Below, piece after piece: positions 39,277 through 63,124 of a stretch of 64,000 nucleotides of DNA (the stretch's first letter is position 1; each line of letters starts with the position of its first letter). The DNA lies in assembly GCA_965215275.1 (NCBI GenBank), contig OZ244044.1, forward strand, positions 1,797,561 to 1,861,560, given 5' to 3'. Both the position numbers and the translations under genes were made by a program. Below the pieces are notes generated by a model, which was not told where the DNA came from, did not search any database, and was given only the letters and a program-made list of their open reading frames with translations. The stretch is from Thermodesulfobacteriota bacterium (GTDB lineage: Bacteria; Desulfobacterota_D; UBA1144; Nemesobacterales; JAJCZQ01).

Positions 39277-39315
39277 CCGTGCTGCCAGGAACGTGGTAAC
39301 ACGGCTTTTCGTTTT
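39277..39315 (+). terminator. possible Rho-independent terminator after the thiolase gene
   Basis: GCCGTG / CACGGC stem with a 17-nt loop, followed by TTTTCGTTTT. Confidence 0.35.
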
Positions 39316-39497
39316 CAGCTGTTATGCCGGTTTTGACAGCATTTTTCTGCAGGGACGTATTATCAGGGTAATTTATATAGTTTCAAAGTGAATAACTCTG
39401 CTGGATTTTATTGTATAATTGTAAAAAACCACTGATTTCAACTGTAAACTATAGAAGTCCTGTATTAATAAATCATATGATCCTCTGATCGTTCGTT

Positions 39498-42406: not shown

Positions 42407-42495
42407 CCTAGGGATACTGAAGTATATAAACCCCGAAAAAAGCGGGAAGCTGAACAGAAGTAACTGTTTACAGTGCCTGTTTTACCTTTTGCAGG

Positions 42496-42524
42496 TTGAT
42501 ATAATGCAGCAGTCGATATATAAT
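42496..42524 (+). promoter_or_regulatory. candidate sigma70-type promoter upstream of the sulfite-reductase-like gene
   Basis: TTGATA at 42496-42501, 17-bp spacer, TATAAT at 42519-42524. Confidence 0.4.
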
Positions 42525-42727
42525 TTCACTTCAGGTTCATCTGTTTTTATGGTTATGATCACAAAGGTTGTTTTATGGTGAGGTGAGTTGATATATCAGG
42601 TACAATTAATTAAAGGGAATTAAAGGTTATGGGACGTGAACGTGCATTTGGCGTTTTTCTTTTCGTTTATAAAGGTATGAACACCTGCACTCATAAGCTG
42701 AACGCATTGTACTTTGAGGTATGAGAT

Positions 42728-44875
42728 ATGGATAATGAGGTTTTAAATAAGATCGATGAAAGGTTACCCGGACCGGTCCTGAAAGAACTGAACGGTTTTA
42801 AGGAAGATATAGAGAGATACAGAACCGGACAGATCGGCGAGGTGAAATTTCAGAAGATAAGGCTTCAGCTCGGAACTTACGCTCAGAGACAGTCGGGAGT
42901 TCAGATGCAGAGGATCAAGATCCCCTACGGCAGGGTGACCTCTGACCAGATGAGAAGACTGTCCGAAGTTTCAGATAAGTACTCCACGGGGTCTATGCAC
43001 CTGACAACGCGTCAGGACGTACAGCTTTATTATCTGGACCTGCAAAGCGTTCCGGACATGATGAAGGAACTGGCCGATGCGGGAATAACCACCCGTGAGG
43101 CATGTGGAAATACCGTCAGGAACGTAACAGCTTCTCCTTTCACCGGTGCTTCTCCTAACGACACGTTCGACGTGACACCCTACGCCGAGGCATTTAAAGA
43201 ATTTATGCTCCGAAACCCTATATGCCAGAATATGGGAAGAAAGTTCAAAGTGTGCTTTGAGAGTGACCCGGATGTGGATAATGCCGGGATAATGATCCAT
43301 GATCTGGGATTCAGGGCAGTGATCAAGGAAGCTGACGGCAGACGACAAAAGGGGTTTCAGTTGTACGTCGGAGGTGGTCTGGGAGCTTCACCTTCGCTGG
43401 GTCATCTGTGGAGCAGCTTCGTTCCGGTCGAGGAGATGATCCCCCTGTCAACCTCCATAATAAGGGTGTTTGACAGATATGGTGAAAGAAAGGTAAGAAT
43501 GAAAGCCAGGATGAAGTTCCTGATCCGGAAACTGGGACTTGACAGGTTCAGAGAACTCGTTGAGGAAGAAAGAGCTAATTTGGAAGTGGATGCTTCATGG
43601 AACGACTATTTAAGATATATTTCAGATAACGAGGTCCCGCCGGATAAAGAGTATGACCTTGAACCTGTCTCGGGTTCCATTAAGGATGATCCCGATTTTC
43701 TGGACTGGAAAGCGGCAAATGTCTCTCCTGCCGGGACCGAAGGATACTCAGTTGTAACCATCAAGATAAAGCTCGGGGACGTTTCCTCTGATTCAGGCAG
43801 ATTTCTGGCCGATACAGCCGACAGGTACGCAGATGGGAACTTGAGGATAACGATACAGCAGAACCTTCTTATAAGGTGGGTTCCGAATGAAGCAGTACCT
43901 TCTCTTTACACTGCTTTGAAAAGTAATGACCTTGCTGACCCGGGTGCGGATTCGTTCAGGGATATAACCGCCTGTCCAGGTGCCGATACGTGCCGTCTGG
44001 GAATTACGTCCGCTAAAGGTCTTGCAACCGAGCTTGCCGGTCTTATGAATAACGGTCTTGGGAAATATAAACAGACGTGCAAGGACCTGAAGATAAAGAT
44101 CTCAGGATGTCCTAATTCCTGTGCACAGCACGTTGCGGCAAGTATAGGTTTCCAGGGAGCTTCCATTACCAAGGACGGAAGATCGGTGCCTGCCGTGATG
44201 CTGTTTCTGGGAGGAGGGCTTTACGGGGACGATACACGGCTTGCGATGCCGATAGGTAAAGTTCCGACAAGAAATGCACCTGAGGTAGTGAACAGGTTGC
44301 TTGAGATGTATGAAAATGATAAGGAGAACGGGGAGCATTTTGATCTTTACGTCAGGAGACTGGGCAGCAAAGCCATTAAAACTGTCCTGAAAGAGTACAG
44401 TGATATTCCTTCTTATGAGGATGATCCTGATTTTTACAGGGATTGGGGGTATGAAGAGGAAAAATTTGAATTACAGCAGGGAGTTAAAGGAGAATGTGCC
44501 GGAGTAACGGTTGAAGAAAAAACTCCCACTTTTGCTGACTCCGAGAAGAGGTTTGAGCAGGCTCAGGCGTTCTTTATTCACGGAGAGTATGAAGACTGCA
44601 TTAATGAACTCTATCTTGCGTGTTCTGACAGTGCTCATGTACCGCTTTATGCAAAACTTGTTGATCCGTTTACCCCTGAGCAGACGATCTGGGAGTTTGA
44701 GAACATTCTTGTAAGAACCGGTGATGCAGATAAAAGATGGATGAACGTTTCAAAGACCTTCACTGATTACAGAACGGGCAGCTACGGTCCTGAAGATGCA
44801 GTTAAGTTCCTTGAACTGGCAAAAGATTTTAATACCGAATGCAGAAGAGTTCATTCTGAACTGACCAAAGGGTGA
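42728..44875 (+). CDS. ferredoxin-type sulfite/nitrite reductase hemoprotein-like protein with a C-terminal extension
   Basis: 715 aa; two NIR_SIR ferredoxin-like halves with siroheme/4Fe-4S cysteines (CPGADTCRLG, SGCPNSCAQH). Confidence 0.75.
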   Translation: MDNEVLNKIDERLPGPVLKELNGFKEDIERYRTGQIGEVKFQKIRLQLGTYAQRQSGVQMQRIKIPYGRVTSDQMRRLSEVSDKYSTGSMHLTTRQDVQLYYLDLQSVPDMMKELADAGITTREACGNTVRNVTASPFTGASPNDTFDVTPYAEAFKEFMLRNPICQNMGRKFKVCFESDPDVDNAGIMIHDLGFRAVIKEADGRRQKGFQLYVGGGLGASPSLGHLWSSFVPVEEMIPLSTSIIRVFDRYGERKVRMKARMKFLIRKLGLDRFRELVEEERANLEVDASWNDYLRYISDNEVPPDKEYDLEPVSGSIKDDPDFLDWKAANVSPAGTEGYSVVTIKIKLGDVSSDSGRFLADTADRYADGNLRITIQQNLLIRWVPNEAVPSLYTALKSNDLADPGADSFRDITACPGADTCRLGITSAKGLATELAGLMNNGLGKYKQTCKDLKIKISGCPNSCAQHVAASIGFQGASITKDGRSVPAVMLFLGGGLYGDDTRLAMPIGKVPTRNAPEVVNRLLEMYENDKENGEHFDLYVRRLGSKAIKTVLKEYSDIPSYEDDPDFYRDWGYEEEKFELQQGVKGECAGVTVEEKTPTFADSEKRFEQAQAFFIHGEYEDCINELYLACSDSAHVPLYAKLVDPFTPEQTIWEFENILVRTGDADKRWMNVSKTFTDYRTGSYGPEDAVKFLELAKDFNTECRRVHSELTKG

Positions 44876-44891
44876 TCTTATCGGTATTGAT

Positions 44892-45182
44892 CTATCTGAA
44901 CAGACTTCTGAAAAACCTGTATATTATACCAAAAAAAGTCGGTTCCTCGGTGTTCTGCAGAGGTACGAAACCCTCTACCGATTGTGCCAGGATATCCTTG
45001 GCTTCATTATAATGATTTTCTGGCACGAAAATTGGTTTGTTATTCAATCCTCCAATAATTGGTCCAACGTACAGGGAGCCAAAATGCTCATTCCTTATGT
45101 AGTATGGAATATCAGCGGAATCCAGCAGGCTTCTTATAACGGCGAGTTCTGATTCACTGTTAGGCACATATAGCTTTTTCAT
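44892..45182 (-). CDS. DUF2007-like small protein (putative signal-transducing protein)
   Basis: 96 aa; SESELAVIRSLLDSADIPYYIRNE pattern resembles DUF2007. Confidence 0.45.
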   Translation of the reverse strand: MKKLYVPNSESELAVIRSLLDSADIPYYIRNEHFGSLYVGPIIGGLNNKPIFVPENHYNEAKDILAQSVEGFVPLQNTEEPTFFGIIYRFFRSLFR

Positions 45183-45276
45183 TCTTTAACGTATATAGGC
45201 GAACCTGTTCTGCACTTTCAGGCAATATTGATCATATAAGAGGGTTTTAATACAAATATCTTTGGGCTTTTACTCT

Positions 45277-45717
45277 TCAGAGACGGTAGCCGCCTTTTAT
45301 ATATTTTTCCAGTTCTCTGATCTGGAACTTCTGATGTTTGATAATATGCGTAAGAACGTCCCCTATTGATACAAGTCCTTCAAGCTTTCCATCTTCTATG
45401 ACGGGCAGGTGCCTTATATGGTTCTCGGACATAAGGGCCATACACTTATCAATAGGGTCAACGGGAGTTACAGAGATCACGTTTTTTGTCATAAGGTCAC
45501 CGACTTCTGTATTGATGGATGACCTGTCCTTTAAGATGATCTTTCTTGCATAGTCCCTTTCTGAGAATATACCCACTATCTTTCCTTTCTCGGTAACCAC
45601 TAATGCACCGATATCTTTTTCCTCCAGTATTTTCAGGGCATTGAAAACGGTGGTTTCCGGTGAAATGGAAAAGACCTCTTTACCTTTGACCTTTAATATA
45701 TCTATTACATTGTTCAT
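45277..45717 (-). CDS. CBS-domain pair protein
   Basis: 146 aa; two CBS motifs (VISVTPVD..., HLPVIEDGKLEGLVSIGDV). Confidence 0.75.
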   Translation of the reverse strand: MNNVIDILKVKGKEVFSISPETTVFNALKILEEKDIGALVVTEKGKIVGIFSERDYARKIILKDRSSINTEVGDLMTKNVISVTPVDPIDKCMALMSENHIRHLPVIEDGKLEGLVSIGDVLTHIIKHQKFQIRELEKYIKGGYRL

Positions 45718-46082
45718 TTTCTGATTTTTCCCAATACAACTTCTTATTACTATTATACTTTAAAAATACTCTGTCAGACAAGGATATTTCAAAATATACT
45801 GTGGATACCCGAACTGTACCATTATTCGGCAGTACTGCTTCCGGAGAAAAATTCGGAATGGATGGTCTTGAGATAACGATGTTCATTAGTGAATGGGCAG
45901 ACAAGGTCAGTTTATTAACTGACCGCTTATATAAGTTTCATTTTTAAGAACCGGCATTACTGCGTTGATCTTATCAATAAAGTTGTGTGTATGGAGATGT
46001 TTTCTGATGAGAAAGGCAGGTTTGCAGGTTTTATACATGGCAGAACGGTGATAGTTCGGGTTGAACCGGAGTTAGCGGTAAA

Positions 46083-46345
46083 GAAAAACAGTGTAAATAC
46101 AAGGGGCGTAGTCCCAATGTCGTTGTTGTATTTTGGATTTAATTCAAGGAAAGTCTGGAAAAGGGACTGCCAGATCTTGTGATAGAAAGTCTTACTTGAT
46201 ATGTTACTTTCGTGCTAAAAAGATCCGTTCTCCCATCATTGCTCCAAATTTTATGATCTCTTTATCCGAAAGGAATGTCTCTGGTGTAACAGTTTCCACG
46301 TGAAATCCAGCATCGCGTATTCTGTCTATGTAATCTTTTCCGCAT
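46083..46345. repeat. direct repeat copy 1 (3' end of the methyltransferase gene plus its downstream region)
   Basis: ~85% identical to 47213-47476 by eye, sharing AATGTCGTTGTTGTATTTTGGATTTAATTCAAGGAAA...TTACTTTCGTGCTAAAAAGATCCG. Confidence 0.7.
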
Positions 46346-46927
46346 AATCGGACATGAAGACATTCACCAAAGGTTTTGAGGCGTTCTTCAGGGTCAGTTA
46401 TTGATGGGTCCTCAAATGTTTTTTGAGTTAAGATCGGGACTAGTATTACAGCCATGCCGTCATCCTTTAATACTCTGTACAGTTCACTTATAGCTTTTTT
46501 ATCATCCTGAATATGTTCCAGTACATGACTGCAGATGATCAGATCGAAAGACCGGTCTGGATATCTGATGTTCGTTATATCCATTTCTACCATCACGTCC
46601 CGGTCACTTAGACCAGCGGATAAGTATCCTTTACCAAAATATTCCTTTAACTTTTGTGCAAGGCACACGGCTGGTGCGATATCAAGCACTTTGATAGATG
46701 GAATGGGGGGGGGGATATGTCTTTAAAAGGAAAAGGTATATCAAGCGATGTCTTTCATAGGAACCGCATGTCGGGCATTTAGCATTTTTACGACTGTTAA
46801 TGCGATTATTAATGGGAAGAAACTCTCTGGACGATCTTTTGCATACTGGGCAATACATTTCTTTTCCACAATGATAATATATTGCTTTTAGAACACTAAT
46901 GAAATATGTACGAATAAGGTGAAGCAT
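46204..46927 (-). CDS. zinc-ribbon + class I SAM-dependent methyltransferase (Methyltransf_11-like), interrupted by a G10 tract; current state frameshifted (OFF)
   Basis: N-terminal ORF (CPVC...CPTC) ends in ...LKTYPPPHSIYQSA* just after the tract. The C-terminal ORF carries the methyltransferase core (DLIICSHVLEHIQD). One fewer C would join the two frames. Confidence 0.7.
46705..46714. repeat. G10 homopolymer inside the methyltransferase coding region; candidate slipped-strand phase-variation tract
   Basis: GGAATGGGGGGGGGGATATG: the tract encodes PPP and shifts frame directly. Confidence 0.75.
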
Positions 46928-47212: not shown

Positions 47213-47476
47213 GGTAAGGACCGTAGTTCCAATGTCGTTGTTGTATTTTGGATTTAATTCAAGGAAAATTTGGAAAAGGGACTGCCAGATCTTATGATGG
47301 AAAGTCTCACTTGATATGTTACTTTCGTGCTAAAAAGATCCGTGTTCCCTTAAATATTCCAAATTTTATGATTTTTTATCCGAAAGGAATATATCTGGTA
47401 TAATAGTTTCTATGTGAAATCTAGCATCGCATATCCTGTCTATATAATTTTCCCCGCATATCCGAAATTATTTCTT
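47213..47476. repeat. direct repeat copy 2 (decayed duplicate of the methyltransferase 3' end), abutting the GT2 start codon
   Basis: See copy 1; carries indels and substitutions. Confidence 0.7.
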
Positions 47477-48397
47477 ATGATAACAGTAGTAATCTGCACC
47501 TATAACAGAAGAAGTTATTTAAAGAAGGCAATAGATAGCATTATCAACCAAACCTTTGACCCTGACCTGTATGAACTGATCATAGTTGATAACAACTCTA
47601 CCGATGGAACAAAAGATTTTGTTTTAAACAATTACAGTCACTCCAGAGTAAAGGTAAGGTATTTGCATGAACCAAACCAGGGACTTTCACATTGTCGGAA
47701 TACGGGTCTTCGGAACGCAAGTTTTGAATATATAGCATATATTGACGATGATGGGATTGCTTATCCTGACTGGCTTGAAAATATGGCAAAAGGGATAAAG
47801 AATCAGAATGAGAAATTTGCTGGAATAACAGGTGCGATATTTCCTATATGGGAAATTCCACGACCAAGATGGCTTTTAGATTTAGATAGGTTGACTATGT
47901 TTTACTCAATATATTACCCTGACAAAAGGACTGTTATTGGTTACGGTTATGTTTTTGGCGGAAACATGGTGTGGAAAAAAAGTCTTTTAATAGAATGTGG
48001 TGGATTTAATACAAAATTAGGAAGAGTAAAAAACAATCTGATATCAGGAGAAGAAAGTCTTACTGCTGAGAAAATAGAAAAAAAAGGATATGAATTCATA
48101 TACGACCCAAAGATGAGAATAAAGCACCATATTCACAAATCCAGAATAAGTATAATGTGGTTAATTAAAAGATCTTTCTGGGGAGGTTATTCACGTATCG
48201 CAATGGAAAATATAAAAACAAAAAAAAGCATTTTAGCAAAGTTCATACAATCGTTTAAGGAGATTAAAAAAGCACTTTATAACCTTGGGTCAGTTCCTAA
48301 ATCCATTATATTTGAACCGAGGTATTATTTTTTGATTAAAATAGTTGACGCTGTAGATTCATTAGGAAGACTCTATGCTTTAGTAATAATAAAGTAA
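47477..48397 (+). CDS. family-2 glycosyltransferase (copy A; the ORF-track start at 47414 is probably an upstream extension)
   Basis: MITVVICTYNRRSYLKKAIDSIINQT...IVDNNSTDGT is the GT2 N-terminus. Close paralog of 51616-52542. Confidence 0.8.
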   Translation: MITVVICTYNRRSYLKKAIDSIINQTFDPDLYELIIVDNNSTDGTKDFVLNNYSHSRVKVRYLHEPNQGLSHCRNTGLRNASFEYIAYIDDDGIAYPDWLENMAKGIKNQNEKFAGITGAIFPIWEIPRPRWLLDLDRLTMFYSIYYPDKRTVIGYGYVFGGNMVWKKSLLIECGGFNTKLGRVKNNLISGEESLTAEKIEKKGYEFIYDPKMRIKHHIHKSRISIMWLIKRSFWGGYSRIAMENIKTKKSILAKFIQSFKEIKKALYNLGSVPKSIIFEPRYYFLIKIVDAVDSLGRLYALVIIK

Positions 48398-48439
48398 CCT
48401 TGCGTTTTTTCCAGTCAGTAAAAATATATCTATAGGCTT

Positions 48440-49267
48440 TGGTTTTATTACCTAATTCATTAAGAATAAAGTTGTTAACTTATACAAAAAACTAATTAAA
48501 TACTTCAGTATTTACGCCCACTCAAAGTGTTTTTCAATATGGTTTTAACCAATAATGCAATAAAAATACCCTCTCCCTCAATCCATTATCAGTCTGATTT
48601 CTGTTCCTTCATGTTGTAAAGGACTTCCAGTAATATTGTTTATATCATCGGTAATTAAAACTCAATAAATTGTCCTTTAGTTGTTAAGAGAGTATAAAAA
48701 ATTTTTGACCTGTTATCCATTAAGACTATCCCTGAAAATATATTGAACTTCCAGAAAAAGGGTATTACGATATGTTTTACCAAGGATAAGGATATTGGTC
48801 CTTACACAAAAATTATTTCAACCTTAACACTTTATCCCAGTGCTATAATCATCCCTGATCACATTATCTGCTCAAGATACAGAAATATGGTAAAAGAGAG
48901 TGAAAACTAACTTATACCGTATAACCATTAGACACTTAACTATTGGCTCGAAAACTGCAAATCAAAAATACATGAAATTAATTTGTTCTTTAATTCCGGG
49001 TTCGGAACTTTATTTTCACCCCAAAGCCTGCCAACTGTAACTGTAGATGAAAAGATCTTTACAGAATTAAAGTCCCTATGCGGATGATGTCTGGTTAAAC
49101 GCCATGAGACTATTGAATAACGTCAAAGTTAGTTACATAAAGACACCGCAGTATATCTATTTATACGGACATAAAAATAATAGTAAAGCACCTGACACTC
49201 TACATAGTATAAACATGAACAGAAAGCAAGTGTTTAACAAATATAATCTATACGAACGGATAAATTA
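48440..49267 (+). pseudogene. decayed paralog of the DXD-motif glycosyltransferase at 52558-53472
   Basis: Nucleotide-level similarity across the region, with multiple indels including a ~75-bp deletion spanning the DXD region. No intact ORF remains. Confidence 0.7.
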
Positions 49268-49286
49268 GTCTGTTATAGAGTGATTG

Positions 49287-50252
49287 TTATCGATAGCCAA
49301 ATAATGATCTGTATATTAACTTCTGCAGACCTTCAGGGAGAAATCTCTTGAACACATTAAACCATACCCAAGACATGATTCTGAATAACAGAAAACTTTG
49401 TAATCTTCTATGCTGGACTTCTAAATTATTATATTGGGTTTTCAAATCTCTATTTTCAACCCACCATCTTCTATTTTGGACTGTAGTACTATTAGTTTTC
49501 AGATGTTTTGCGGTCATAACCTTCACCCAATGTTTTTCATATAACTTTCTGTGTTTATTTATAATATAAGCATAATAGATATCTGATTTACTGATATTAC
49601 TCAAATACAATGAATTTTTATGTACTCTATAGTTAAATAAATATTCAGGTATTACTTTTATTTTCCATCCATCTTTAGCTATGTTTATCCAGTGCTCCCA
49701 GTCTTCATGATTCTTCAAATTTTCATCATACATCCCCACTTTAACGGATGCTTCTCGTCTGAAACAGGACGATGGTATTATATAACACCATGTTAATATC
49801 CTAACTAAACTCGTATTGCCTTTGCTATAACTACGCTTGTCAACAATATCTCCAAACATATTAAAAAAAGGAGCTACTATCCCAACATCTTTATAGTTTT
49901 CAAACACATTCCTTGCTTTCTCTAAATAGGTCGGTTCCAAATAATCATCCCCATCAAGACAACATATATATTCAGAGTCTGCCTTCTTTATACCTTCATT
50001 ACGAGCTGCTGAAACTCCTCTGTTTTTATCCAGTTTTATTAAGTGAACATTGTTTGAAATCTCATTCAGAACCTTGATCGTCTCAGGGTCGTCCGAGCGA
50101 TCATCAACTACTATCAATTGCACGTCCTGCAATGTTTGACCAAGTACCGAGTTAATTGCCTTCTTCAGCAATTTCCCTTTATTGTAAGAGGTAATTACTA
50201 CCGTGAACTCGTATACAGATAAACTTCTTGAATTATAACTGTTTCGTCCCAT
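49287..50252 (-). CDS. family-2 glycosyltransferase (copy A of the 53491-54408 paralog)
   Basis: FTVVITSYNKGKLLKKAINSVLGQT...VVDDRSDDPET...DGDDYLEP are GT2 motifs. ~85% aa identity to the paralog, with a 22-aa in-frame tandem insertion near the C-terminus. Confidence 0.8.
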   Translation of the reverse strand: MGRNSYNSRSLSVYEFTVVITSYNKGKLLKKAINSVLGQTLQDVQLIVVDDRSDDPETIKVLNEISNNVHLIKLDKNRGVSAARNEGIKKADSEYICCLDGDDYLEPTYLEKARNVFENYKDVGIVAPFFNMFGDIVDKRSYSKGNTSLVRILTWCYIIPSSCFRREASVKVGMYDENLKNHEDWEHWINIAKDGWKIKVIPEYLFNYRVHKNSLYLSNISKSDIYYAYIINKHRKLYEKHWVKVMTAKHLKTNSTTVQNRRWWVENRDLKTQYNNLEVQHRRLQSFLLFRIMSWVWFNVFKRFLPEGLQKLIYRSLFGYR

Positions 50253-51189
50253 GAGATTTTATAAAAAAATTTTTAACCTTCCTGTGTACCCAGTAAGTTA
50301 TTAATCTGTCTAAAAATAGGTTAAACTTTACTAAATATCCTTTATTTATTGGATTACTGTTCATTGTATAACTAAAACTAACTATAGATGGGTACTTCAG
50401 AGTTAATATATAAGATAAATGTCTATTCCTCTGTTTCTTTGATAATATATGTTTTAAATTATTATAGTAATTATGAAATAAAACTAATTCCGGATCATAA
50501 AGAAAAGAATCCTTGTCATATCCATAGAACTCAACCATTCTAAAACACAAAAATGTACCCTCGTGTCCCACCATACCATCCTCAAAACCTCCCACCTCAA
50601 TAAAATCCTTCCTCTTGAACATTGAGACACATTCAGCATTTATACAGCAAGGAATAACTTCATCTCCTAAATCATAATGACACGGTTCAATTCTAATCAA
50701 ACCGGTATGGATCTGTTTTACCTTACCTCTAATTGCCACTAATTTAGCGTCATTCATCAGAACTTGAACCTTATCAAACGCTATGTCCACGTCTTCAAGA
50801 TAACCATCGGCATCAACAAAAAAAATAACGGGTGCATTGCAGTATAAACTCCCTATGTTCCTTCCCGTTCCACATCCCACGTTTTTATTCATAACAATAT
50901 GCTTTAGGGAATAGGACCGTAACTTCTCTTTAGCTGGTTCGGATAGACCATTATCAACAACTACTATTTCATACGACCCTGATTTGGCACATGTTATAGA
51001 ACTCAACGCTCTGAATAATAACTCATCTTCATTATAAACAACCAGCAAAAAACTTATCCAGGGCTCTTGGATATCTTGCAAATTATATGAATTAACCTCT
51101 TCTATACTATCACTATACTTTTCTATTGAGAGCGGTGGCTTTTTATGCTCTAATTTTAAATCGAGATAATCCTTGAGGTTGTTTTTCAT
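50233..51189 (-). CDS. family-2 glycosyltransferase (singleton lying between the two duplicated blocks)
   Basis: SFLLVVYNEDELLFRALSSI...VVVDNGLSEP and a DAD-type motif in FFVDADGY. Confidence 0.7.
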   Translation of the reverse strand: MKNNLKDYLDLKLEHKKPPLSIEKYSDSIEEVNSYNLQDIQEPWISFLLVVYNEDELLFRALSSITCAKSGSYEIVVVDNGLSEPAKEKLRSYSLKHIVMNKNVGCGTGRNIGSLYCNAPVIFFVDADGYLEDVDIAFDKVQVLMNDAKLVAIRGKVKQIHTGLIRIEPCHYDLGDEVIPCCINAECVSMFKRKDFIEVGGFEDGMVGHEGTFLCFRMVEFYGYDKDSFLYDPELVLFHNYYNNLKHILSKKQRNRHLSYILTLKYPSIVSFSYTMNSNPINKGYLVKFNLFLDRLITYWVHRKVKNFFIKSHGTKQL

Positions 51190-51367
51190 TTTAACAAAGT
51201 CGGTGTATTGTTCTGCCTAACTGTAAATAGTGATAGTAATATCTGTATCCCAGAACAGTATGCATAATTATATATAAATCCTGAAAAGTACATTATGACG
51301 GTACAATTTCTACTTTTCATTTCAATCCCGTGGCAAACATGGTGTTTTTAGCTGAGAGAACAAAACT

Positions 51368-51550
51368 TTGTTTCATGGAGACAATTTAGATTTTGTACGA
51401 GCAATGAATAGTAATAGTGTAGATATAGTAAAAACAGACACACCTTTCAATAAAAGCAAAGACTTTTCTGCTGACAGAGCAGTATGGTTTCTGAAGCAAA
51501 GGTTTCAGTATAGATGGTCTTGGGATGACTCTGTTCATGAAAGGTGGTAA
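51368..51550 (+). pseudogene. N-terminal remnant (60 aa) of a beta-class DNA methyltransferase, homologous to the island methyltransferase at 15801-17155
   Basis: MFHGDNLDFVRAMNSNSVDIVKTDTPFNKSKDF...YRWSWDDSVHERW aligns with (L)FHGDNLDFLRAMNSESVHLIATDPPFNKNRDF...DRWSWDRDVHQEW. Confidence 0.7.
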
Positions 51551-51615
51551 GACAAGACCGCTGATAACTTTTCTATTATGTAAAGTTGCGTATATAGTTC
51601 CCTAATTTACTTCTT

Positions 51616-52542
51616 ATGATAACAGTAATAATTTGCACCTATAACAGAAGAAGTTATTTAAAGAAGGCAATAGATAGTATTATCAACCAAACCTTTGACC
51701 CTGACCTGTATGAACTGATCATAGTTGATAACAACTCTACCGATGGAACAAAAGATTTTGTTTTAAACAATTACAGTCACTCCAGAGTAAAGGTAAGGTA
51801 TTTGCATGAACCAAACCAAGGGCTTTCACATTGTAGGAATACGGGACTTCGGAACGCAAGTTTTGAATATATAGCATATATTGACGATGATGGGATTGCT
51901 TACTCTGACTGGCTTGAAAATATGGCAAAAGGAATAAAAGACCAGAATGAGAAATTTGCTGGAATAACAGGTGCGATATTTCCTATATGGGAAATTCCAC
52001 GTCCAAGGTGGCTTTTAGATAAGTGGCAGATTGCTATATATTACTCAATATATAAACACCGTGACAAAAGAATTGTTATTAGTCGAGGTGTCAAGATAGG
52101 TGTTTTTGGCGGAAACATGGTGTGGAAAAAAAGTCTTTTAATAGAATGTGGTGGATTTAATACAAAATTAGGAAGAGTAAAAAACAATCTGATATCAGGA
52201 GAAGAAAATTTTACTGCTGAGAGAATAAAAAATAAAGGATATGAATTCATATACGACCCGAAAATGAGAATAAAGCACCATATTCACAAATCCAGAATAA
52301 ATATAAAATGGTTAATTAAAAGAGCTTTCTGGGGAGGTTATTCACATATAGCAGCAGAAAATATAAAACAAAGCGTTTTAACAAAGTTCATACGATCGTT
52401 CAAGGAGATCATAAGAGCACTTTTTCACATTGGGTCAGTTCCTGCTATCATTATATTTAAACCAAGATATCATTTCCTGATTAACATAATTAACGCTGTA
52501 AATTCATCAGGAAGGATCTATGGTTTGTTGAGAATTAAGTAA
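51616..52542 (+). CDS. family-2 glycosyltransferase (copy B)
   Basis: 308 aa; first ~170 aa are near-identical to the 47477-48397 product. Confidence 0.85.
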   Translation: MITVIICTYNRRSYLKKAIDSIINQTFDPDLYELIIVDNNSTDGTKDFVLNNYSHSRVKVRYLHEPNQGLSHCRNTGLRNASFEYIAYIDDDGIAYSDWLENMAKGIKDQNEKFAGITGAIFPIWEIPRPRWLLDKWQIAIYYSIYKHRDKRIVISRGVKIGVFGGNMVWKKSLLIECGGFNTKLGRVKNNLISGEENFTAERIKNKGYEFIYDPKMRIKHHIHKSRINIKWLIKRAFWGGYSHIAAENIKQSVLTKFIRSFKEIIRALFHIGSVPAIIIFKPRYHFLINIINAVNSSGRIYGLLRIK

Positions 52543-52557
52543 TCTTGGTTTTAACCT

Positions 52558-53472
52558 ATGTTCATGGAGAATAAAGTTGCTAACTTATTTAAAAGACTAA
52601 TTAAACACTTTAGTACCTATGTCCACTTAAAGTTTTTAAATATGTTTTCAACCAATAAGGCAGTAGCCAATATACCTTCTTCAATCCCACCCATTATTAT
52701 CAGCCTGACCTCTATCCCTTCACGTTTTAAAGAACTTCCAATAGTGCTTGAAAGTTTATGCCATCAGTCAGTAAAACCCGATAAAATTATCCTCTGGCTG
52801 TCAAAAGAGTATAAAAATAAAAAGTTTGGTCATTTGTCCATGAAAACTATCCCTGAAAATATACTGAACTTTCAGAAAAGGGGTATTACAATACGTTTTA
52901 CGCAGGACATCGGGCCTTACACAAAAATCATTCCAACCCTGAAACTTTATCCCAATGCCGTTATCATAACCGTCGATGACGACCTTATGTATAAACCAGA
53001 CCTGGTAAAGTATTTATATGAAAAACACCGGCAATTACCTGATCATATTATCTGCTCAAGATACAGAAATATGGTCAAAAAGAATGAAAACGAACTTATA
53101 CCTTATAACAATTGGGAACTCAACTGCTGGCTTGAAAACTGCAAATCAAAAATACATGAAACTAATTCGTTCTTTAATTCCGGATTCGGAACTTTATTTC
53201 CACCTCAGAGTCTGCCAACTGTAACTGCAGATGAAAAGATCTTTACAGAATTAAGTCCCTATGCGGATGATGTTTGGTTAAACGCCATGAGATTACTGAA
53301 CAACGTCAAGGTCAGTTGCATAAAAAAGCCGCAGTATATCTATTTATACGGACATAAAAATAATAGCAAAGCACCCGACACTCTACGTAGTATAAACATG
53401 AACAGAAAGCAAAACGATATTCAGTTAAAGCAAGTATTTGACAGATATGATCTATACGAACGGATAAATTAG
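52558..53472 (+). CDS. putative glycosyltransferase with a DXD motif (intact copy)
   Basis: 304 aa; VIITVDDDLMY and a capsule/LPS-type sugar-transferase-like pattern. Intact counterpart of the pseudogene at 48440-49267. Confidence 0.6.
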   Translation: MFMENKVANLFKRLIKHFSTYVHLKFLNMFSTNKAVANIPSSIPPIIISLTSIPSRFKELPIVLESLCHQSVKPDKIILWLSKEYKNKKFGHLSMKTIPENILNFQKRGITIRFTQDIGPYTKIIPTLKLYPNAVIITVDDDLMYKPDLVKYLYEKHRQLPDHIICSRYRNMVKKNENELIPYNNWELNCWLENCKSKIHETNSFFNSGFGTLFPPQSLPTVTADEKIFTELSPYADDVWLNAMRLLNNVKVSCIKKPQYIYLYGHKNNSKAPDTLRSINMNRKQNDIQLKQVFDRYDLYERIN

Positions 53473-53490
53473 TCCGTTATGGAGTGATTG

Positions 53491-54408
53491 TCATCTATAG
53501 CTAAATAATAATCTGTATATTAACTTCTGCAGACCTTCAGGGAGAAATTTCTTGAACACGTTAAGCCATACCCAAGACATGGTCCGGAATAACAGGAAAC
53601 TTTGTAATCTTCTATGCTGGACTATCAAGTTACTAGTTCGCCGATGTTTTGCGGTTACGACCTCAACCAAATGTTCTTCATATAACTTTCTGTGTTTATT
53701 TATAATATAAGCATAATAGATATCTGCCTTACCAATATTACTCAAATGTAATGAATGTCCGTGCACTCTGATATTCACTAAATATTGCGGTATTACTTTT
53801 ATCTTCCACCCATCTTTAGCTATGTTTATCCAGTGCTCCCAATCTTCATGATCCCTCAAATTCTCATCATACATACCTACTTTAACGGATGCCTCTCGTC
53901 TGAAGCAGGATGGCGATATTATATAAAACCATGTTAATATCCTAACTAAACTCGTATCACCCATGCTATGACTACGTTTGCCAGTAATATCTCCAAACAC
54001 ATTATAAAAAGAAGCTACTATTCCGACATCTTTATCATTTTCAAATACGTTCCTTGCTTTCTCTAAATAGGTCGGTTCCAAATAATCATCCCCGTCAAGA
54101 CAACATATATATTCAGAATCCGCGTTCCTTATACCTTCATTACGAGCTGCTGAAACTCCTCTGTTCTTATCCAGTCTTATTACGTGAACATCTTTTGAGA
54201 TCTGGTTCAGAACCTTGATCGTTTCAGGGTCGTCCGAGCGATCATCAACTACTATAAGTTGCACGTCATGCAACGTTTGACCAAGGACCGAGTTAATTGC
54301 CTGCTTCAGCCATCTCCCTTTGTTGTAAGAGGTAATTACTACGGTGAACTTAAACCCGTAAGATAGTTTATTTGAATTTGAACCGTTATATTCTTTGACA
54401 GCCTTCAT
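53491..54408 (-). CDS. family-2 glycosyltransferase (copy B)
   Basis: 305 aa; paralog of 49287-50252. Confidence 0.85.
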   Translation of the reverse strand: MKAVKEYNGSNSNKLSYGFKFTVVITSYNKGRWLKQAINSVLGQTLHDVQLIVVDDRSDDPETIKVLNQISKDVHVIRLDKNRGVSAARNEGIRNADSEYICCLDGDDYLEPTYLEKARNVFENDKDVGIVASFYNVFGDITGKRSHSMGDTSLVRILTWFYIISPSCFRREASVKVGMYDENLRDHEDWEHWINIAKDGWKIKVIPQYLVNIRVHGHSLHLSNIGKADIYYAYIINKHRKLYEEHLVEVVTAKHRRTSNLIVQHRRLQSFLLFRTMSWVWLNVFKKFLPEGLQKLIYRLLFSYR

Positions 54409-55054
54409 AAGGGATCACCAATCCTCAGAGTCATACACTTAAACTGTTCTGTAACAAAATTTCCCATCTGAAGATAGGAGAATTACATAGTTGATTTGAC
54501 AAATTGTATTGCTCATCAGCTTTTCCAGACCTTGGTTTGTCGTTTTTACTGCCTGAAAAAATATGAATACACAATCAAATCCTATCCAGTTCATCTCAGG
54601 CAAACAGTTTCTGATTATTAATATCTGATCTGTCATAGTGTGAAATAAAACGTTCAGTCAATTGGTTTTATGATCATCAATATTTAGTGTAATGTACAAA
54701 TTTGTATTGGCAAAAGTCAAATATGTAATGGCACCTGAAGCACTCAAAGGAAATTATATGCAGTAGTGGGAACGTCTGTGTTGTGAGTTCTTACGCCGTT
54801 TTATTTTATGAGAAGTTTTACATTTAAGACAGACAGTTTTACCACACCATCTTATTTATTCAGACCAACCGCCTTGCGTTCAACAGTTTTAACTCGTCTT
54901 TTTACTGTCTTTATAATACCTGTAATACAGCTAAAAATATAATTATATCAAGCAGTTATGACAGATTTATTTAAAATTATTTTAAAGTTTTATGTATTTT
55001 TGTATATAGGTTCCCAATTTAACATACGGTTTTTATCAACTATAATATGGGTTA

Positions 55055-56326
55055 ATGTACCCAAATATTGAAAGGCTTAATTCAACTGGATTATTCGACA
55101 TCAGGCCCGGTCTCAACAGAATTAACACGGTCCTTAATTATCTTGGAAACCCTCATAACAATATCAGATACGTTCTTATAGCAGGCACAAATGGCAAAGG
55201 TTCCGTGGCCTCAATATTATCTAATATACTGATCCATAACGGACATAAAACGGGTTTATATACCTCACCTCACTTAACCTCCGTCACCGAAAGAATAAAA
55301 ATCAACAGTAAGAACATTGATAAAAAGGAGCTGAACAAAGTACTGGGAAACGTTTTTGAAGCATGTACTGAAACTGATGTAAAACTCAGCTATTTTGAAC
55401 TGGTCACCGCTGCTGCTTTTTTATACTTTGAGAAGCAGAAAATCGATACAGGCGTTTTAGAGGTCGGAATGGGTGGCAGGTGGGACGCAACAAACGTCAT
55501 CATCCCACTTGTATCAATAATTACCAGTATATCAATCGACCATACAGACCATCTTGGGTCCACTACTGAACTTATTGCAGGAGAGAAAGCTGAAATTATA
55601 AAAAAAACCGTACCCGTGGTATCGGGTGTCATGGGAAAAGCCCATAGGATAATAATTGATAAAGCAAAAAAGACCAGTTCCGACGTGTTCGTAATACAAA
55701 AGGACTTTAACTATGAAAAAGCTGAGGACGGAAAGTTCAGTTACAGTGGAATTTTCAACAGTATAAACAATTTGACTTCCAGTCTTGCAGGAGAGCATCA
55801 GATGACCAACTCAGCCATTGCACTGGCGGCAGCGGAACTGCTTGACTCAAGATATAAAATAAAGATAGATCTTGAAAGTGTCAGAAAGCCCTTGAGTTCG
55901 GTACAGCTGCAGGGCAGATTTGAAATAATAAGTACCCAGCCTGCCGTAATACTGGACTCCGCTCACAACGTTGGTTCTGCAAATGCACTGATCAATACAC
56001 TTGATGAGTTCCTGCCGAGCGAAAAATGGGTCTTTCTTCTCGGGATGTCAAAAGACAAGGATCATAACGGGTTCACCTCGACGATCTCACGCAAGGCCGC
56101 CAAAGTGGTTGTAACTACCATCCCGGGAGAAAAAGGTACAGACGCCCGGACGCTTTTCAAAACGTCAAGGACCCATGTTGAAGATACAGAGATAGTCAGT
56201 GACTATAAAAAAGCATTTATATATGTTAAAGGTTTAAACATGCCGGTATGTATTACCGGGTCCATTTATCTTATAGGACTTATCAAACGGTTCCTGAAAA
56301 GTAAAACCTGCAACGTTCAGGAATAA
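55055..56326 (+). CDS. folC: bifunctional folylpolyglutamate synthase / dihydrofolate synthase
   Basis: 423 aa; Mur-ligase-family P-loop IAGTNGKGS and an FPGS-type C-terminal domain. Confidence 0.85.
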   Translation: MYPNIERLNSTGLFDIRPGLNRINTVLNYLGNPHNNIRYVLIAGTNGKGSVASILSNILIHNGHKTGLYTSPHLTSVTERIKINSKNIDKKELNKVLGNVFEACTETDVKLSYFELVTAAAFLYFEKQKIDTGVLEVGMGGRWDATNVIIPLVSIITSISIDHTDHLGSTTELIAGEKAEIIKKTVPVVSGVMGKAHRIIIDKAKKTSSDVFVIQKDFNYEKAEDGKFSYSGIFNSINNLTSSLAGEHQMTNSAIALAAAELLDSRYKIKIDLESVRKPLSSVQLQGRFEIISTQPAVILDSAHNVGSANALINTLDEFLPSEKWVFLLGMSKDKDHNGFTSTISRKAAKVVVTTIPGEKGTDARTLFKTSRTHVEDTEIVSDYKKAFIYVKGLNMPVCITGSIYLIGLIKRFLKSKTCNVQE

Positions 56327-56350
56327 GCTGATCGCACAAGACAGAAAATA

Positions 56351-57391
56351 ATGAAGATGAAACGAGTGGGGATCGTAAAAGATGAGCTGTTCTTAAGGCA
56401 CGTAAACGGCTTTCAGCATCCTGAATGCCCCGAGCGGCTTGAGTCTATCTACAATATGCTGAAAGAAACGGACATCATATCAAAGCTAAAGATCATGGAC
56501 CCGGCTGACGCGGCCGATGAGCAGATACTGAAGGTCCACTCCGAACCTTATTACGAAACGGTAAAAAAGACAAAAGGAACCAGGACGTACAGGTTCGATC
56601 AGGATACTTCGTCCAATCCCTACACGTACGAGGCCGCGTTAAGGGGCTCCGGAGGCTTTATATCGGGATTAAATAAGGTATTAGATAACGAGCTGGACAT
56701 TGTCTTTGCCCTGCTTCGTCCACCGGGACATCACGCCGAGTCGGACAAGGCCATGGGTTTCTGCTTCTTTAATCACGTGGCGATCGCAGCAGCACATCTG
56801 CTTTCACGAGGAGTAAAAAAGGTCCTGATATTTGACTGGGACGTACATCACGGGAACGGCACGCAGCATATATTCTATAAAGATCCCAACGTCCTGTTCG
56901 CGTCCATACATCAGTTCCCGTTTTACCCCGGCACGGGGAGTTTAAACGAGACCGGCAGCGAATACGGCCTGGGATTTACGGTGAATATTCCCGTGCCTCC
57001 GATGCTGAACGACAACGATTACAACCACCTGCTTGACGTTATAATGTCTCCTGTAATTGAACAGTTCAAACCTGACTTTATTCTTGTCTCTGCCGGGTTT
57101 GACGCTTATTACGTTGATCCGCTGGGTGGAATGCATATAACCGAAAAAGGTTTTGCACAGCTTACAAGATTTGTGATAAACGCCGCTGAAAAGCATTCAA
57201 AAGGAAGACTTGGACTGGTGCTTGAAGGAGGTTATAACGTTCAGGGACTTGCAGATATAAGCAGGCTTGTTTTTGAAGAACTTCTTGATATGAACAAAAC
57301 CGAGATCGTTATTCCCGATACTTCACCAAATACCGAGTTCGTAATCGAAGGAGTTTTAAGCAGCTACTCCTCGTACTGGAAGTTCAAATAA
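56351..57391 (+). CDS. histone-deacetylase-family protein (acetoin-utilisation AcuC / HDAC-like)
   Basis: 346 aa; RPPGHHA, DWDVHHGNGTQ and catalytic His/Asp/Tyr arrangement. Confidence 0.85.
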   Translation: MKMKRVGIVKDELFLRHVNGFQHPECPERLESIYNMLKETDIISKLKIMDPADAADEQILKVHSEPYYETVKKTKGTRTYRFDQDTSSNPYTYEAALRGSGGFISGLNKVLDNELDIVFALLRPPGHHAESDKAMGFCFFNHVAIAAAHLLSRGVKKVLIFDWDVHHGNGTQHIFYKDPNVLFASIHQFPFYPGTGSLNETGSEYGLGFTVNIPVPPMLNDNDYNHLLDVIMSPVIEQFKPDFILVSAGFDAYYVDPLGGMHITEKGFAQLTRFVINAAEKHSKGRLGLVLEGGYNVQGLADISRLVFEELLDMNKTEIVIPDTSPNTEFVIEGVLSSYSSYWKFK

Positions 57392-57452
57392 AAAAAACAG
57401 ACCTCGACTGCGAACGGCGATCAAGGGACCGCCCTATATCCTTACCCGCTGA

Positions 57453-58268
57453 TCAGCTAAACGACCTTCGATAATCCGTCCCGTCAATATACATAAAGTC
57501 ACACATCTCATGAAGTCTGGATAATATGCGCTTTCCTATTCTTTCCTCCAAGAGCTCGGAGTTTGAAGGATCGTTCCCTGCGTGCTCCCTTGACAGAAAA
57601 TTGGTCGTGATCAAGGTTTTCTTGGACGTGTTGTACCTATCAGAGATCAACTGATCTAAAATGCCCTGCTCCCACTCAGTATTCTTGCCCTTACCCATTT
57701 CATCTATTACAAGCACCTCCACCTTCAGCAGGGGCTGAAGTATGTCTGTTTCATATAAGCCTTGTGAATAAGCCTGCTTGAGTTCGGATAAAAGCAGAAA
57801 AAAATCCTTAAATAAACAATCGATCCCTTTCTCTATCGTAAGTTCTGATATGGTGCCGATCACAAGGTGCGTTTTACCTACTCCCGGAGGTCCCATTAAA
57901 ACGTAACCTTTTTTATTCTCTGAATACTGGTTTATAAATTTGTCCTTTATGTGCTTCAAGGCGTTCTGCTGACTTGTGGACTCGGGTTTATAGGTGTCTA
58001 CCATCAATACTGATGAGAATTTCACGGGTATTTCCGCACGATTGTACTTCTTTATATTGCTTCTCAAATAGCCACAGGCCGGACAGGGAAGATACACTTC
58101 ATAGTTATTTTTATTTTTATCGATTACAGACCCTATACCATTACATAACTGACACTCGTCCACACACCTGCATGCTTTAAGGTGAGAGAATTTCTTATGT
58201 TTACGAGCAACGTAACCCTGATGACGACAGTCAAGACAGCCTATTTGTTTTTTGCGCTCGATGATCAC
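57453..58268 (-). CDS. DnaC/DnaI/IstB-like AAA+ helicase-loader ATPase with an N-terminal Cys-rich zinc module
   Basis: 271 aa; Walker A GPPGVGKTHL and Walker B VLVIDEMG. N-terminal CLDCRH...CRCVDECQLCNG...CPACG cysteine cluster. Confidence 0.65.
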   Translation of the reverse strand: MIIERKKQIGCLDCRHQGYVARKHKKFSHLKACRCVDECQLCNGIGSVIDKNKNNYEVYLPCPACGYLRSNIKKYNRAEIPVKFSSVLMVDTYKPESTSQQNALKHIKDKFINQYSENKKGYVLMGPPGVGKTHLVIGTISELTIEKGIDCLFKDFFLLLSELKQAYSQGLYETDILQPLLKVEVLVIDEMGKGKNTEWEQGILDQLISDRYNTSKKTLITTNFLSREHAGNDPSNSELLEERIGKRILSRLHEMCDFMYIDGTDYRRSFS

Positions 58269-58936
58269 CGTTTATCAACTTCAAATGGATTAAAAGATAT
58301 GTACTTTTCTATTATGAGGTTTTTCAAATAAGTATGCAATAATTTTTCTTTCGACCGCTCATTGACGTAATCATCACGACTGGCTAAAAACCTTTCCACA
58401 TCATCTTCGAAAGTCTCACTGTGCACTTCATACAGACACCTGTATATCCTGTCAAAATACTCCGCCTCCATTTCATTGACCTTTTCAAACACGTTCTTTT
58501 CAGAGACGTCCAGCCCTAAAAGCCCTGCCTTGAACTCACTGTGCAGCTTACGAAGATCAGAGGATCTTTCTGCTTTTATCAATCTGTTGAAGTTATCTGA
58601 CAGGTCTTTTATATAAAGCCTGACTTCCAGGGAACCAGCCGCGACGGACCTGCGTTCGTTCAGTTCCGACCCGCTGCTTTCAACCTGCTCCTTACAGTCG
58701 CAGATACTTCTGATGTTCTTTCCTGTTTTCTGCTCAAAAGCATCCGTTATACCCTTGATGACCCGCTCTTTTGATAATCCCATATCCTGCCACTTACTGA
58801 TGAGGTAATAATCACTGGAAGAGACCATAACCCCTTTTCCGCAGAGCGTTAAAAAGTAGTTCTCAATATCTTTGACAAACGTATCGGACTGGCTCATTCG
58901 TACACCGACAGATACAACCCCGCGACCCGGGATCAT
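58265..58936 (-). CDS. DnaD-like (DnaB_2 / DDBH2 domain) replication-initiation/restart protein
   Basis: 223 aa; the segment YYLISKWQDMGLSKERVIKGITDAFEQ matches the DnaD-domain core (x-W-x-x-G). 4-bp overlap with the downstream loader gene. Confidence 0.5.
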   Translation of the reverse strand: MIPGRGVVSVGVRMSQSDTFVKDIENYFLTLCGKGVMVSSSDYYLISKWQDMGLSKERVIKGITDAFEQKTGKNIRSICDCKEQVESSGSELNERRSVAAGSLEVRLYIKDLSDNFNRLIKAERSSDLRKLHSEFKAGLLGLDVSEKNVFEKVNEMEAEYFDRIYRCLYEVHSETFEDDVERFLASRDDYVNERSKEKLLHTYLKNLIIEKYISFNPFEVDKR

Positions 58937-59607
58937 CAGTTTATTAATCTTTTCATCTCCGCGATCGTTTCGGAGTAGCTTTGCGTGGAGAATATACCCG
59001 ACCCTGAAACTATGACCTCCGCCCCGGCATCGGCAACCTTTCTGACATTGTCCAGTTTAATACCGCCATCCACCTCAATTACAGGTTTTTCAGTTGAATC
59101 CATACCGTCAATGATCTCTCTTAATCTTGCTATCTTACCGGTCGTGGACTCTATGAACTTCTGCCCTGCAAATCCCGGCTCAACGGACATTATCAAGATC
59201 AGGTCCACTATCGGCAGGACCTGGTCCAGAACGCTCAGCGAAGTGGCAGGATTGACAGCTACACCTGCCATGACACCACAGGATCTGATCTTCGAGACCG
59301 TACTGTACAAAAGGTCGCTGGCTTCGGCCTGTACAGTAAGTATCCTGCAGTGAGGAGCGGCAGCTTCTATAAACAACTCCGCAAGCTGATCCGGATTGTC
59401 TATCATCAGATGAATGTCCATAGGAGGTGGAGCAATCCGTGCGAGCGACCTGACCGTGGGAACTCCCATACTTATATTGGGTACAAAATGCCCGTCCATT
59501 ACGTCAACGTGTATTAAGTCCGCACCGGCTTTTTTCACGGCACTTACTTCTTCCGCAAGTCTGGAGATGTCTGCTGCCAAAATCGAAGGTGCGATCAGTT
59601 TCTTCAT
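58936..59607 (-). CDS. rpe: ribulose-phosphate 3-epimerase
   Basis: 223 aa; APSILAAD...HVDVMDGHFVPN is the Rpe signature. Confidence 0.9.
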   Translation of the reverse strand: MKKLIAPSILAADISRLAEEVSAVKKAGADLIHVDVMDGHFVPNISMGVPTVRSLARIAPPPMDIHLMIDNPDQLAELFIEAAAPHCRILTVQAEASDLLYSTVSKIRSCGVMAGVAVNPATSLSVLDQVLPIVDLILIMSVEPGFAGQKFIESTTGKIARLREIIDGMDSTEKPVIEVDGGIKLDNVRKVADAGAEVIVSGSGIFSTQSYSETIAEMKRLIN

Positions 59608-59776
59608 TATAAGGGTCCACTTGATTAACTTTCAGGGACTTAAGATAATACACGAGAAAAAGAAAAAATCTTGTTTTATGAGAATTAATCATATATATAT
59701 TTCAGGTTTTAATATAACACTCCTGAATTACATATTTTTTTAAATTCAGCTAAAATTCAAATCGAAAGGAAATCAT

Positions 59777-62214
<2,438 letters not shown>

Positions 62215-62220
62215 AGATCT

Positions 62221-63123: not shown

Positions 63124-63124
63124 G

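Follow-up and report, generated by a model that had tools for sequence, protein, structure and literature searches.

The stretch analysed here (the window) comprises 64,000 nucleotides (nt) of contig OZ244044.1, from assembly GCA_965215275.1 of a Thermodesulfobacteriota bacterium. Its subject is a block of three glycosyltransferase genes, called GT2a, the middle gene and GT2c, which is present twice, as blocks A and B, with a singleton glycosyltransferase between the copies. The blocks lie in a glycan island of 31-38% GC (~45% around it), between a gene for an S-adenosylmethionine (SAM)-dependent methyltransferase and folC. An earlier note on this DNA had described the locus as a recent segmental duplication with differential decay, and all the genes listed in it (GT2a, middle gene, GT2c and singleton GT2) are present. 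For comparison, a related strain (~97% identical) was represented by contigs from the ENA samples ERZ21849000 and ERZ21848999 and by the metagenome-assembled genome (MAG) GCA_964348445.1. The main features, with their positions in the window, are as follows.

47462-50243, no strand: block A, the cassette copy with GT2a-A, the middle pseudogene and GT2c-A, colinear with block B at 88.9% nucleotide identity
47477-48397, plus strand: GT2a-A, an intact family-2 glycosyltransferase (GT2) of 306 amino acids (aa) (PF00535, E=2.5e-30; IDDDG motif kept)
48456-49267, plus strand: middle-gene pseudogene of block A, recovered by tblastn with the block B protein as three pieces in two frames
49287-50252, minus strand: GT2c-A, an intact family-2 glycosyltransferase of 321 aa (PF00535, E=1e-29; LDGDD motif)
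50233-51189, minus strand: singleton GT2 of 318 aa (PF00535, E=1.3e-12; tblastn)
51601-54387, no strand: block B, the complete cassette, with an orthologous block in the related-strain contig L019 (95-97% nucleotide identity)
51616-52542, plus strand: GT2a-B, 308 aa (PF00535, E=5.3e-30)
52558-53472, plus strand: intact middle gene of 304 aa with a predicted GT-A fold, KfiA/EXTL2-like, with D140-D141-D142 (alignment, profile, AlphaFold2 model and Foldseek)
53491-54408, minus strand: GT2c-B, 305 aa (PF00535, E=1.8e-32)
54409-54586, minus strand: 'B-type' upstream region of GT2c, delimited by BLAST of contigs L022 and L023 against 54586-53435, kept in L019 and in both L022 copies and absent from A

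Two colinear copies of a glycosyltransferase block

Repeat search, local alignment and self-BLAST all showed that blocks A and B form one colinear direct repeat, which confirms the proposal of a three-gene glycosyltransferase block present twice in direct orientation. Their alignment contains 2357 matches in 2919 columns, with 340 substitutions and 269 gap columns distributed in 34 indels, and the identity over ungapped columns is 88.9%. This similarity is far beyond chance. The starts of the copies are ~4.14 kb apart, with a spacer of 1.36 kb (50244-51600), and the gene order is the same in both: GT2a and the GT-A 'DDD' transferase on the plus strand and GT2c on the minus strand, so that the minus strand reported before applies to GT2c only.

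Concerning the distribution of the identity, it is a mosaic, with 96% in the first 400 nt followed by segments of 67-100% that alternate with indel-rich stretches. The near-identity attributed to the first ~500 nt therefore stands for 400 nt, which include a 140-nt exact match, and not for 500. The longest exact matches are that one (47540-47679) and another of 107 nt (47950-48056). The homology covers just 15 nt upstream of the GT2a start codon and stops within the first GT2c codons, so that each block amounts to coding DNA with essentially no promoter.

A single block shown twice by the assembly has to be considered here, given the general risk that repeats carry and the fact that block A is seen solely in the source assembly. 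However, artefactual duplicates would be near-identical, whereas these copies differ by the substitutions and indels given above, by a pseudogene in one of them, and by their flanks and junctions. Moreover, an independent assembly confirms block B together with the spacer on its left and the flank on its right through L019, which holds a complete cassette block and is colinear with window positions 51166-63463 at 97.1%; this contig stops 24 nt into the singleton GT2, and hence spans block B and not the position of block A. Since the copies have diverged and block B is independently confirmed, an artefact is effectively excluded.

All five GT2 genes are members of PF00535 (48-113 bits, cut-off 23.3) and keep their DXD motifs: IDDDG in both GT2a copies, LDGDD in both GT2c copies and VDADG in the singleton. 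GT2a, GT2c and the singleton all remain below the NCBIfam equivalog cut-offs. The protein identity of ~85% given for the GT2 pairs was a fair estimate, with 84% for GT2a and, for GT2c, 82% of the aligned codons (76% if a 21-aa gap is counted). The ratio of nonsynonymous to synonymous divergence (dN/dS) between A and B is 0.46 for GT2a and 0.27 for GT2c, and 0.13 between GT2c-B and its related-strain orthologue, and the GT2a differences are concentrated past codon 100. Together with the intact motifs, these values suggest that the outer genes are under relaxed purifying selection, with change mostly in their C-terminal, acceptor-side halves, and that both outer genes of block A would still be functional after diverging on the acceptor side. 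A compensated frameshift behind the hypervariable GT2a stretch at 47862-47949 was ruled out by stops in the other frames. A metagenome scan with GT2a-B gave a single match, at 25% identity, and the singleton GT2 shares only 24% identity with GT2c (tblastn).

The 5' end of GT2c-A and the singleton GT2 share 20 nt, a configuration named here the 'A-type' junction, and GT2c-A is therefore probably co-transcribed with this upstream gene. The 63-nt gap between the GT2c copies corresponds to three 21-nt heptad repeat units present in A and missing in B. The heptad-like repeat (KNLETQH / KDLETQH, 49419-49487 in A) separates the catalytic domain from a hydrophobic C-terminal helix, and its number of units among GT2c paralogues goes from 0 to ~9 (0-1 in B, ~2 in A and ~9 in the paralogue P0129). 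It may act as a coiled-coil spacer whose length varies.

The middle gene is intact in block B only, as had been proposed, and both tblastn and alignment identify the A copy as a pseudogene: its reading frame is shifted twice and interrupted by six stops, and it has suffered a deletion of 21 nt and another of 69 nt, the latter taking out TVDDDLMYKPDLVKYLYEKHRQL and with it the DDD motif. At least 700 homologues of the gene exist, and in the family alignment of 27 of them D140, D141 and D142 are invariant (27/27). The B protein scores 22.1 bits against PF00535, below the cut-off of 23.3, and 18 of the 27 homologues match this family at E<=0.01; the B protein has no NCBIfam match. A profile of the middle family matches KfiA (5z8b, E=2.7e-5) and heparosan synthase. 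Furthermore, the AlphaFold2 model of the B protein (predicted local distance difference test, pLDDT, 89; predicted template modelling score, pTM, 0.89) found 203 PDB matches with Foldseek at E<=1e-3, the 50 matches listed being all glycosyltransferases, headed by KfiA, PmHS2, GnT-I, SpsA and EXTL2. The invariant DDD, the profile match to KfiA and the structural matches together lead to the prediction that the middle gene encodes a GT-A DXD transferase, in agreement with the label of DXD-glycosyltransferase that it had received. A GT-A fold with DXD is what it has in common with KfiA of Escherichia coli K5, the N-acetylglucosamine-transferase domain of Pasteurella PmHS2 and mammalian EXTL2, which are its best profile and structure matches, yet with 13-20% sequence identity.

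Regarding the distribution of the middle gene, the nearest homologues outside the lineage are at most 42% identical, a scan of GTDB genomes with the middle protein returned homologues all at or below 40% identity, and the matching genomes are mostly Bacteroidota. A horizontal origin of the gene is possible from these data. One further homologue, in the metagenome contig L017 (JGI 3300007082, 2865 bp), shares 84% aa and 86% nt identity with the B copy and adjoins a GmrSD/HNH gene instead of GT2c; the three-gene cassette is thus not invariant across the lineage.

Age of the copies and origin of their arrangement

The uncultured host has a genome of ~2 Mb and affinities to Thermodesulfobacteriota/Dadabacteria; the closest named relatives of its FtsK (56-68%) come from MAGs labelled Thermodesulfobacteriota, Candidatus Dadabacteria or Deltaproteobacteria. 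Nothing specific was found in the literature on this lineage or on the cassette. A search with the GT2c-A protein returned only 17 close proteins (58-100% identical), and four of them are encoded on the 1.99-Mb source contig, namely A and B as well as P0133 and P0136, which are located outside the window. The cassette family comprises at least four copies in this genome and at least eight in the relative, spread over several loci. Apart from the complete block in L019, contig L020 carries a 3' fragment of the singleton, an A-type GT2c and a middle gene, up to the contig end; L021 carries a partial middle gene, GT2a, an IS1595 fragment and two GT2c genes; L022 carries two GT2c genes; and L024/L025 carry two GT2c genes among Peripla_BP_6 paralogues, beside a TnpB fragment.

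The synonymous divergence (dS) between A and B is 0.19 for GT2a and 0.37 for GT2c. Between the strains it is 0.02-0.11 for ten housekeeping genes and 0.09-0.15 for the B-block orthologues, so the A/B value is ~3-6 times that of the strain level; other pairs of cassette paralogues give 0.20-0.33. In the GT2c tree, the nearest relative of A is the L020 copy (81%), and that of B is its L019 orthologue (97%), followed by the first L022 copy (L022c1). A and B, 81% identical in this comparison, are not exclusive sisters. The GT2a genes of A, B and L021 are about equidistant (88-90%). With regard to the junctions, the A-type 5' end, in which GT2c is fused to the 3' end of the singleton, is common to A and L020, and the B-type upstream region is common to B, L019 and both L022 copies. 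The high dS, the tree in which A and B are not sisters and the junctions common to other loci together argue that the A/B split is older than the divergence of the strains and part of a family-wide expansion.

These results speak against the recent duplication that had been suggested. A tandem duplication in situ in this strain, after which the copies diverged and decayed fast, would account for the direct orientation, the shared gene order, the adjacency across a short spacer and the near-identical first 400 nt. However, it would have to be reconciled with a dS several times the strain level between copies that are not sisters, with junction types that occur at other loci in another strain, and with an orthologue of block B at 96-97% in the related strain when no relative of block A exceeds 82%. 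In addition, neither the spacer (50244-51600) nor any remnant of the singleton GT2 recurs after block B by blastn, tblastx or tblastn, contrary to what a simple tandem unit would leave, and the near-identical 5' part is accounted for by the conversion described below. A recent event of this kind is therefore highly improbable.

In the light of these comparisons, A and B are probably old paralogous copies of a lineage-specific three-gene cassette, located in an AT-rich glycan-modification island. The cassette consists of GT2a, a KfiA-like GT-A transferase and a convergent GT2c, and its copies would have separated well before the sampled strains diverged, in a family-wide expansion that seeded several loci. 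Their present adjacency could come either from a tandem duplication in situ or from the arrival of a second cassette through recombination. Two fragments that border the blocks bear on this choice.

47216-47460, minus strand: remnant copy of the 3' end of the SAM-methyltransferase gene and the downstream DNA, 88% identical to 46101-46346 (tblastn)
51356-51571, plus strand: decayed N-terminus of an N6_N4 DNA methylase (61-69% aa identity by tblastx to 17123-16908)

The first of them is one half of a second repeat (46101-46346 and 47216-47460) that abuts the left edge of block A and was missed by the earlier note. The second is the methyltransferase remnant that had been noticed in the spacer, which is real; its DPPF motif is changed to DTPF, it carries one stop, and it is also found in L019 (201-360). 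Its intact paralogue (~15801-17155, minus strand) is fused to an HNH nuclease and lies beside an IS1595 transposase. Decayed pieces of the methylase-HNH gene accompany glycosyltransferase cassettes in the window, L019 and L022, and debris of methylase-HNH or IS1595 is often found beside cassette copies (window, L019, L021 and L022).

It could then be that A and B arrived separately, one cassette being imported by homologous recombination or by a mobile element such as IS1595 with methylase-HNH. This would fit the closest GT2c relative and the junction type of A being at a different locus of the related strain (L020), the duplicated methyltransferase fragment truncated by the left edge of block A, the mobile fragments beside cassettes in those four sequences and the intact methylase-HNH and IS1595 unit at 15.8-18.3 kb. 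On the other hand, insertion sequence (IS) ends, target-site duplications or a transposase were not found flanking A or B, the mobile remnants may have inserted independently in an island that is permissive, and the three-gene order and direct orientation fit a local duplication equally well. Separate arrival is thus an unlikely origin, though a more credible one than the recent duplication.

Other features of the surroundings were also recorded. Around the intact methylase there is a second low-GC islet (15073-18317, 35-37% GC) with a HicA-like gene, the N6_N4 methylase-HNH gene and the IS1595 transposase. An element of the TnpB/IS605 type at 36676-38021 is apparently split (open reading frames, ORFs, at 36710-37483 and 37462-37932); a sequence of 32-36 nt is found inverted at its ends (36676-36707 and 37986-38021) and matches L017 1050-1084, next to the middle-gene homologue. 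An island insertion linked to tRNA was ruled out, as the window holds zero tRNA genes. The promoter scan (40 against 39.5 in shuffled sequence) and the terminator scan (8 against 4.7±1.9) were not clearly above the shuffled expectation and were left unused.

Exchange between copies, a probable rearrangement and candidate switches

An alignment of A, B and the orthologue of B revealed the following tract in the 5' part of GT2a.

47527-47746, plus strand: gene-conversion-type tract in which A equals B and the orthologue of B differs, including the 140-nt exact match

Within the tract, A and B agree against the orthologue at 15 sites, and B and its orthologue agree against A at 3 sites; A and B differ at 5 sites, and B and its orthologue at 17. 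Significance was assessed with a permutation scan statistic in place of a post-hoc Fisher test (p<=5e-5). As A and B are closer to each other here than B is to its orthologue, which contradicts the orthology tree whatever the constraint, the pattern points to gene conversion between paralogues since the strains split. At 6 of the 15 sites the L019 orthologue matches the L021 copy, and the conversion may thus have gone in more than one direction. A second, weak cluster is present at 48712-48769, in the middle pseudogene of A, where A equals the related-strain orthologue of B and the B copy of the window differs (6 sites against 2, permutation p=0.047); this is possibly another small exchange tract.

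The earlier note had proposed that the repeat is a substrate for recombinational switching of polysaccharide structure. The part of this proposal that holds is the exchange of sequence between copies, and the 140- and 107-nt exact matches could support RecA recombination. The part that does not is a switch mechanism, since no inverted repeats of at least 16 nt occur in 47-55 kb and no site-specific recombinase or invertase adjacent to A or B was found among the window ORFs; the sole nearby recombinase, an XerD-like gene at 62221-63123, is in a conserved housekeeping context. A programmed, shufflon-like or invertible-element-like switch that swaps active and silent cassettes would find some support in the intact and partly silent copies lying side by side and in the evident transfer of sequence between them. 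Nevertheless, it would need the inverted repeats and the recombinase just mentioned, and in the 'silent' block neither outer gene is damaged and each has a start codon of its own, which makes such a switch extremely improbable. As direct repeats, A and B could give rise to deletion, amplification or hybrid genes, and not to reversible switching.

The comparison with the related strain showed that the locus is structurally different there. Its left flank (window 37918-46100) is matched at 96.5% by L022 and L023, which come from two independent assemblies and display the same join: past the methyltransferase (compared with window 46975 onward) there are two tandem GT2c-like genes in the opposite orientation, with methylase-HNH debris between them, and after this pair come def, thi4 and rplI, which are absent from the window. 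The right flank, from block B to an M50 peptidase, is located in the related strain on a separate contig from the left flank (thiolase to methyltransferase). The genes def and rplI are normally single-copy core genes, and because of this we infer that the strain difference is a chromosomal rearrangement with its breakpoint in the island and not a simple insertion or deletion.

With respect to reversible switching, the only signature found is that of homopolymer tracts in neighbouring and paralogous genes, which the earlier note had missed. Only two G/C runs of at least 9 nt are present in the window, a count reached in 2 of 100 shuffles, and there is no homopolymer tract inside block A or B. 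The first run interrupts the methyltransferase gene at the border of the island.

46204-46927, minus strand: SAM-dependent methyltransferase (zinc-ribbon and class I fold), split by a C10 tract at 46705-46714 (ORFs, profiles and tract comparison)

This C10 on the coding strand (G10 as read) falls exactly between methyltransferase ORFs of 81 and 161 aa, and a C9 or a C12 at the same place would join them into one ORF of ~240 aa. In the related strain the tract has 9 nt (L022 8943-8951) and the methyltransferase ORF, of 282 aa, is open. The N-terminal part of this gene also contains a 15-nt tandem repeat (NNRIN/NSRIN) with ~8 units in L022 (~9000-9150) and ~2 in the window (~46780-46830). The second run, a C9 at 17134-17142, is just past the start of the DNA methylase-HNH gene, where a C10 would give a full-length protein from MKASTPPPS.

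Similar tracts are present in cassette paralogues. A G10 at L022 11646-11655 lies within the 5' codons of a GT2c paralogue with an open ORF of 313 aa; in L023 (~2600-2610), which is otherwise identical to L022, the tract has 9 nt, GGGGTGGGG, and the GT2c gene call is truncated to 260 aa. Another GT2c copy has a C9 at its 5' end (L021 3324-3332). A further C9, at L020 7099-7107, is within another gene. The tracts in neighbouring and paralogous genes fit the classic pattern of contingency loci, and the switching that they suggest is a candidate one, seen between assemblies.

Proposed diversification of the island, known systems and significance

Under the interpretation of A and B as old paralogous copies, several changes after their separation are seen directly. 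Block A no longer has its middle enzyme and its GT2c has become fused behind the singleton GT2, and GT2c-B has an upstream region of its own and has lost three 21-nt units. The four outer GT2 genes have all kept their DXD motifs, and copies have exchanged the 5' part of GT2a. The copies may now add different sugars or linkages, by which the pair would widen or vary the surface-glycan repertoire. Variation among strains would take place by gain, loss and rearrangement of cassettes through homologous recombination, and fast on/off variation would be due to slipped-strand changes of G/C tracts in the methyltransferase and some paralogues, not to the A/B repeat.

Several points weigh against this interpretation. 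The ORFs of at least 100 aa that were listed for 36-64 kb include no flippase, polymerase or initiating transferase. The tract in GT2a could be a conversion of the L019 orthologue by a third paralogue and not an exchange between A and B. Finally, a sequencing error at the homopolymer, in one assembly or the other, may contribute to the C10 versus C9 difference in the methyltransferase, and errors of this kind are likewise possible at the other tracts.

The pair A/B is a diverged pair of a multi-copy, recombining family of glycosyltransferase cassettes, a kind of system that is already well known. In the Neisseria lgt loci there are direct pairs of paralogues (lgtA/lgtD and lgtB/lgtE), recombination between them leads to hybrids and deletions, and poly-G tracts turn some of the genes on and off. 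These lipooligosaccharide loci (lgtABCDE), reportedly the subject of work by Gotschlich in 1994, Jennings in 1995 and Zhu in 2002, resemble the island in their clustered direct glycosyltransferase paralogues, recombination between paralogues and, as a candidate here, poly-G switching. However, the unit here has three genes with a convergent member, its copies are dispersed, there is no tract in A/B, and the host belongs to an uncultured environmental or symbiotic lineage.

The capsule, lipooligosaccharide and flagellar-glycosylation loci of Campylobacter jejuni, said to have been treated by Parkhill in 2000 and Karlyshev in 2005, are similar in that these glycan loci, too, are AT-rich and become diversified through gene duplication, deletion and fusion as well as horizontal exchange, with G/C tracts in glycosyltransferase and methyltransferase genes, including sugar-decorating methyltransferases. 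They differ in that no kps, wzx or wzy export genes lie beside the present island, in their family relationships, and in that tract-length variation is known here between assemblies only and not within a population. The duplication of cap in Haemophilus influenzae type b, reportedly studied by Kroll in 1988-1991, likewise consists of polysaccharide gene blocks repeated directly in tandem, one of them disabled by a deletion. Its copies are nearly identical, flanked by IS1016 and amplified by recA-dependent unequal crossover, whereas A and B differ by 11%, have no IS copies at their flanks and code for enzymes that have diverged.

A broader possibility, which is put forward tentatively and for which we would give odds well short of even, is a genome-wide system of glycan diversification, in which four to eight or more dispersed cassettes exchange segments and seed rearrangements, G/C tracts turn some members, as well as the sugar methyltransferase, on and off, and the GT2c heptad tunes the reach from the membrane. 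To our knowledge, this combination of dispersed cassettes, conversion, tracts and heptad has no described counterpart outside host-associated pathogens.

Glycosyltransferases that duplicate and diverge are what surface-glycan variation is normally built from, and the finding as first stated is ordinary. The added value lies in an uncultured lineage with a ~2-Mb genome, in which one cassette family occupies several loci, with exchange between copies and a strain-specific breakpoint, and in which homopolymer tracts would turn a neighbouring methyltransferase and paralogous transferases on or off from one assembly to another. If this is confirmed, such regions would stand out as places where metagenome assemblies tend to break and strains to be heterogeneous, and the contingency-locus strategy of Campylobacter, Neisseria and Haemophilus would be extended to an environmental or symbiotic lineage.

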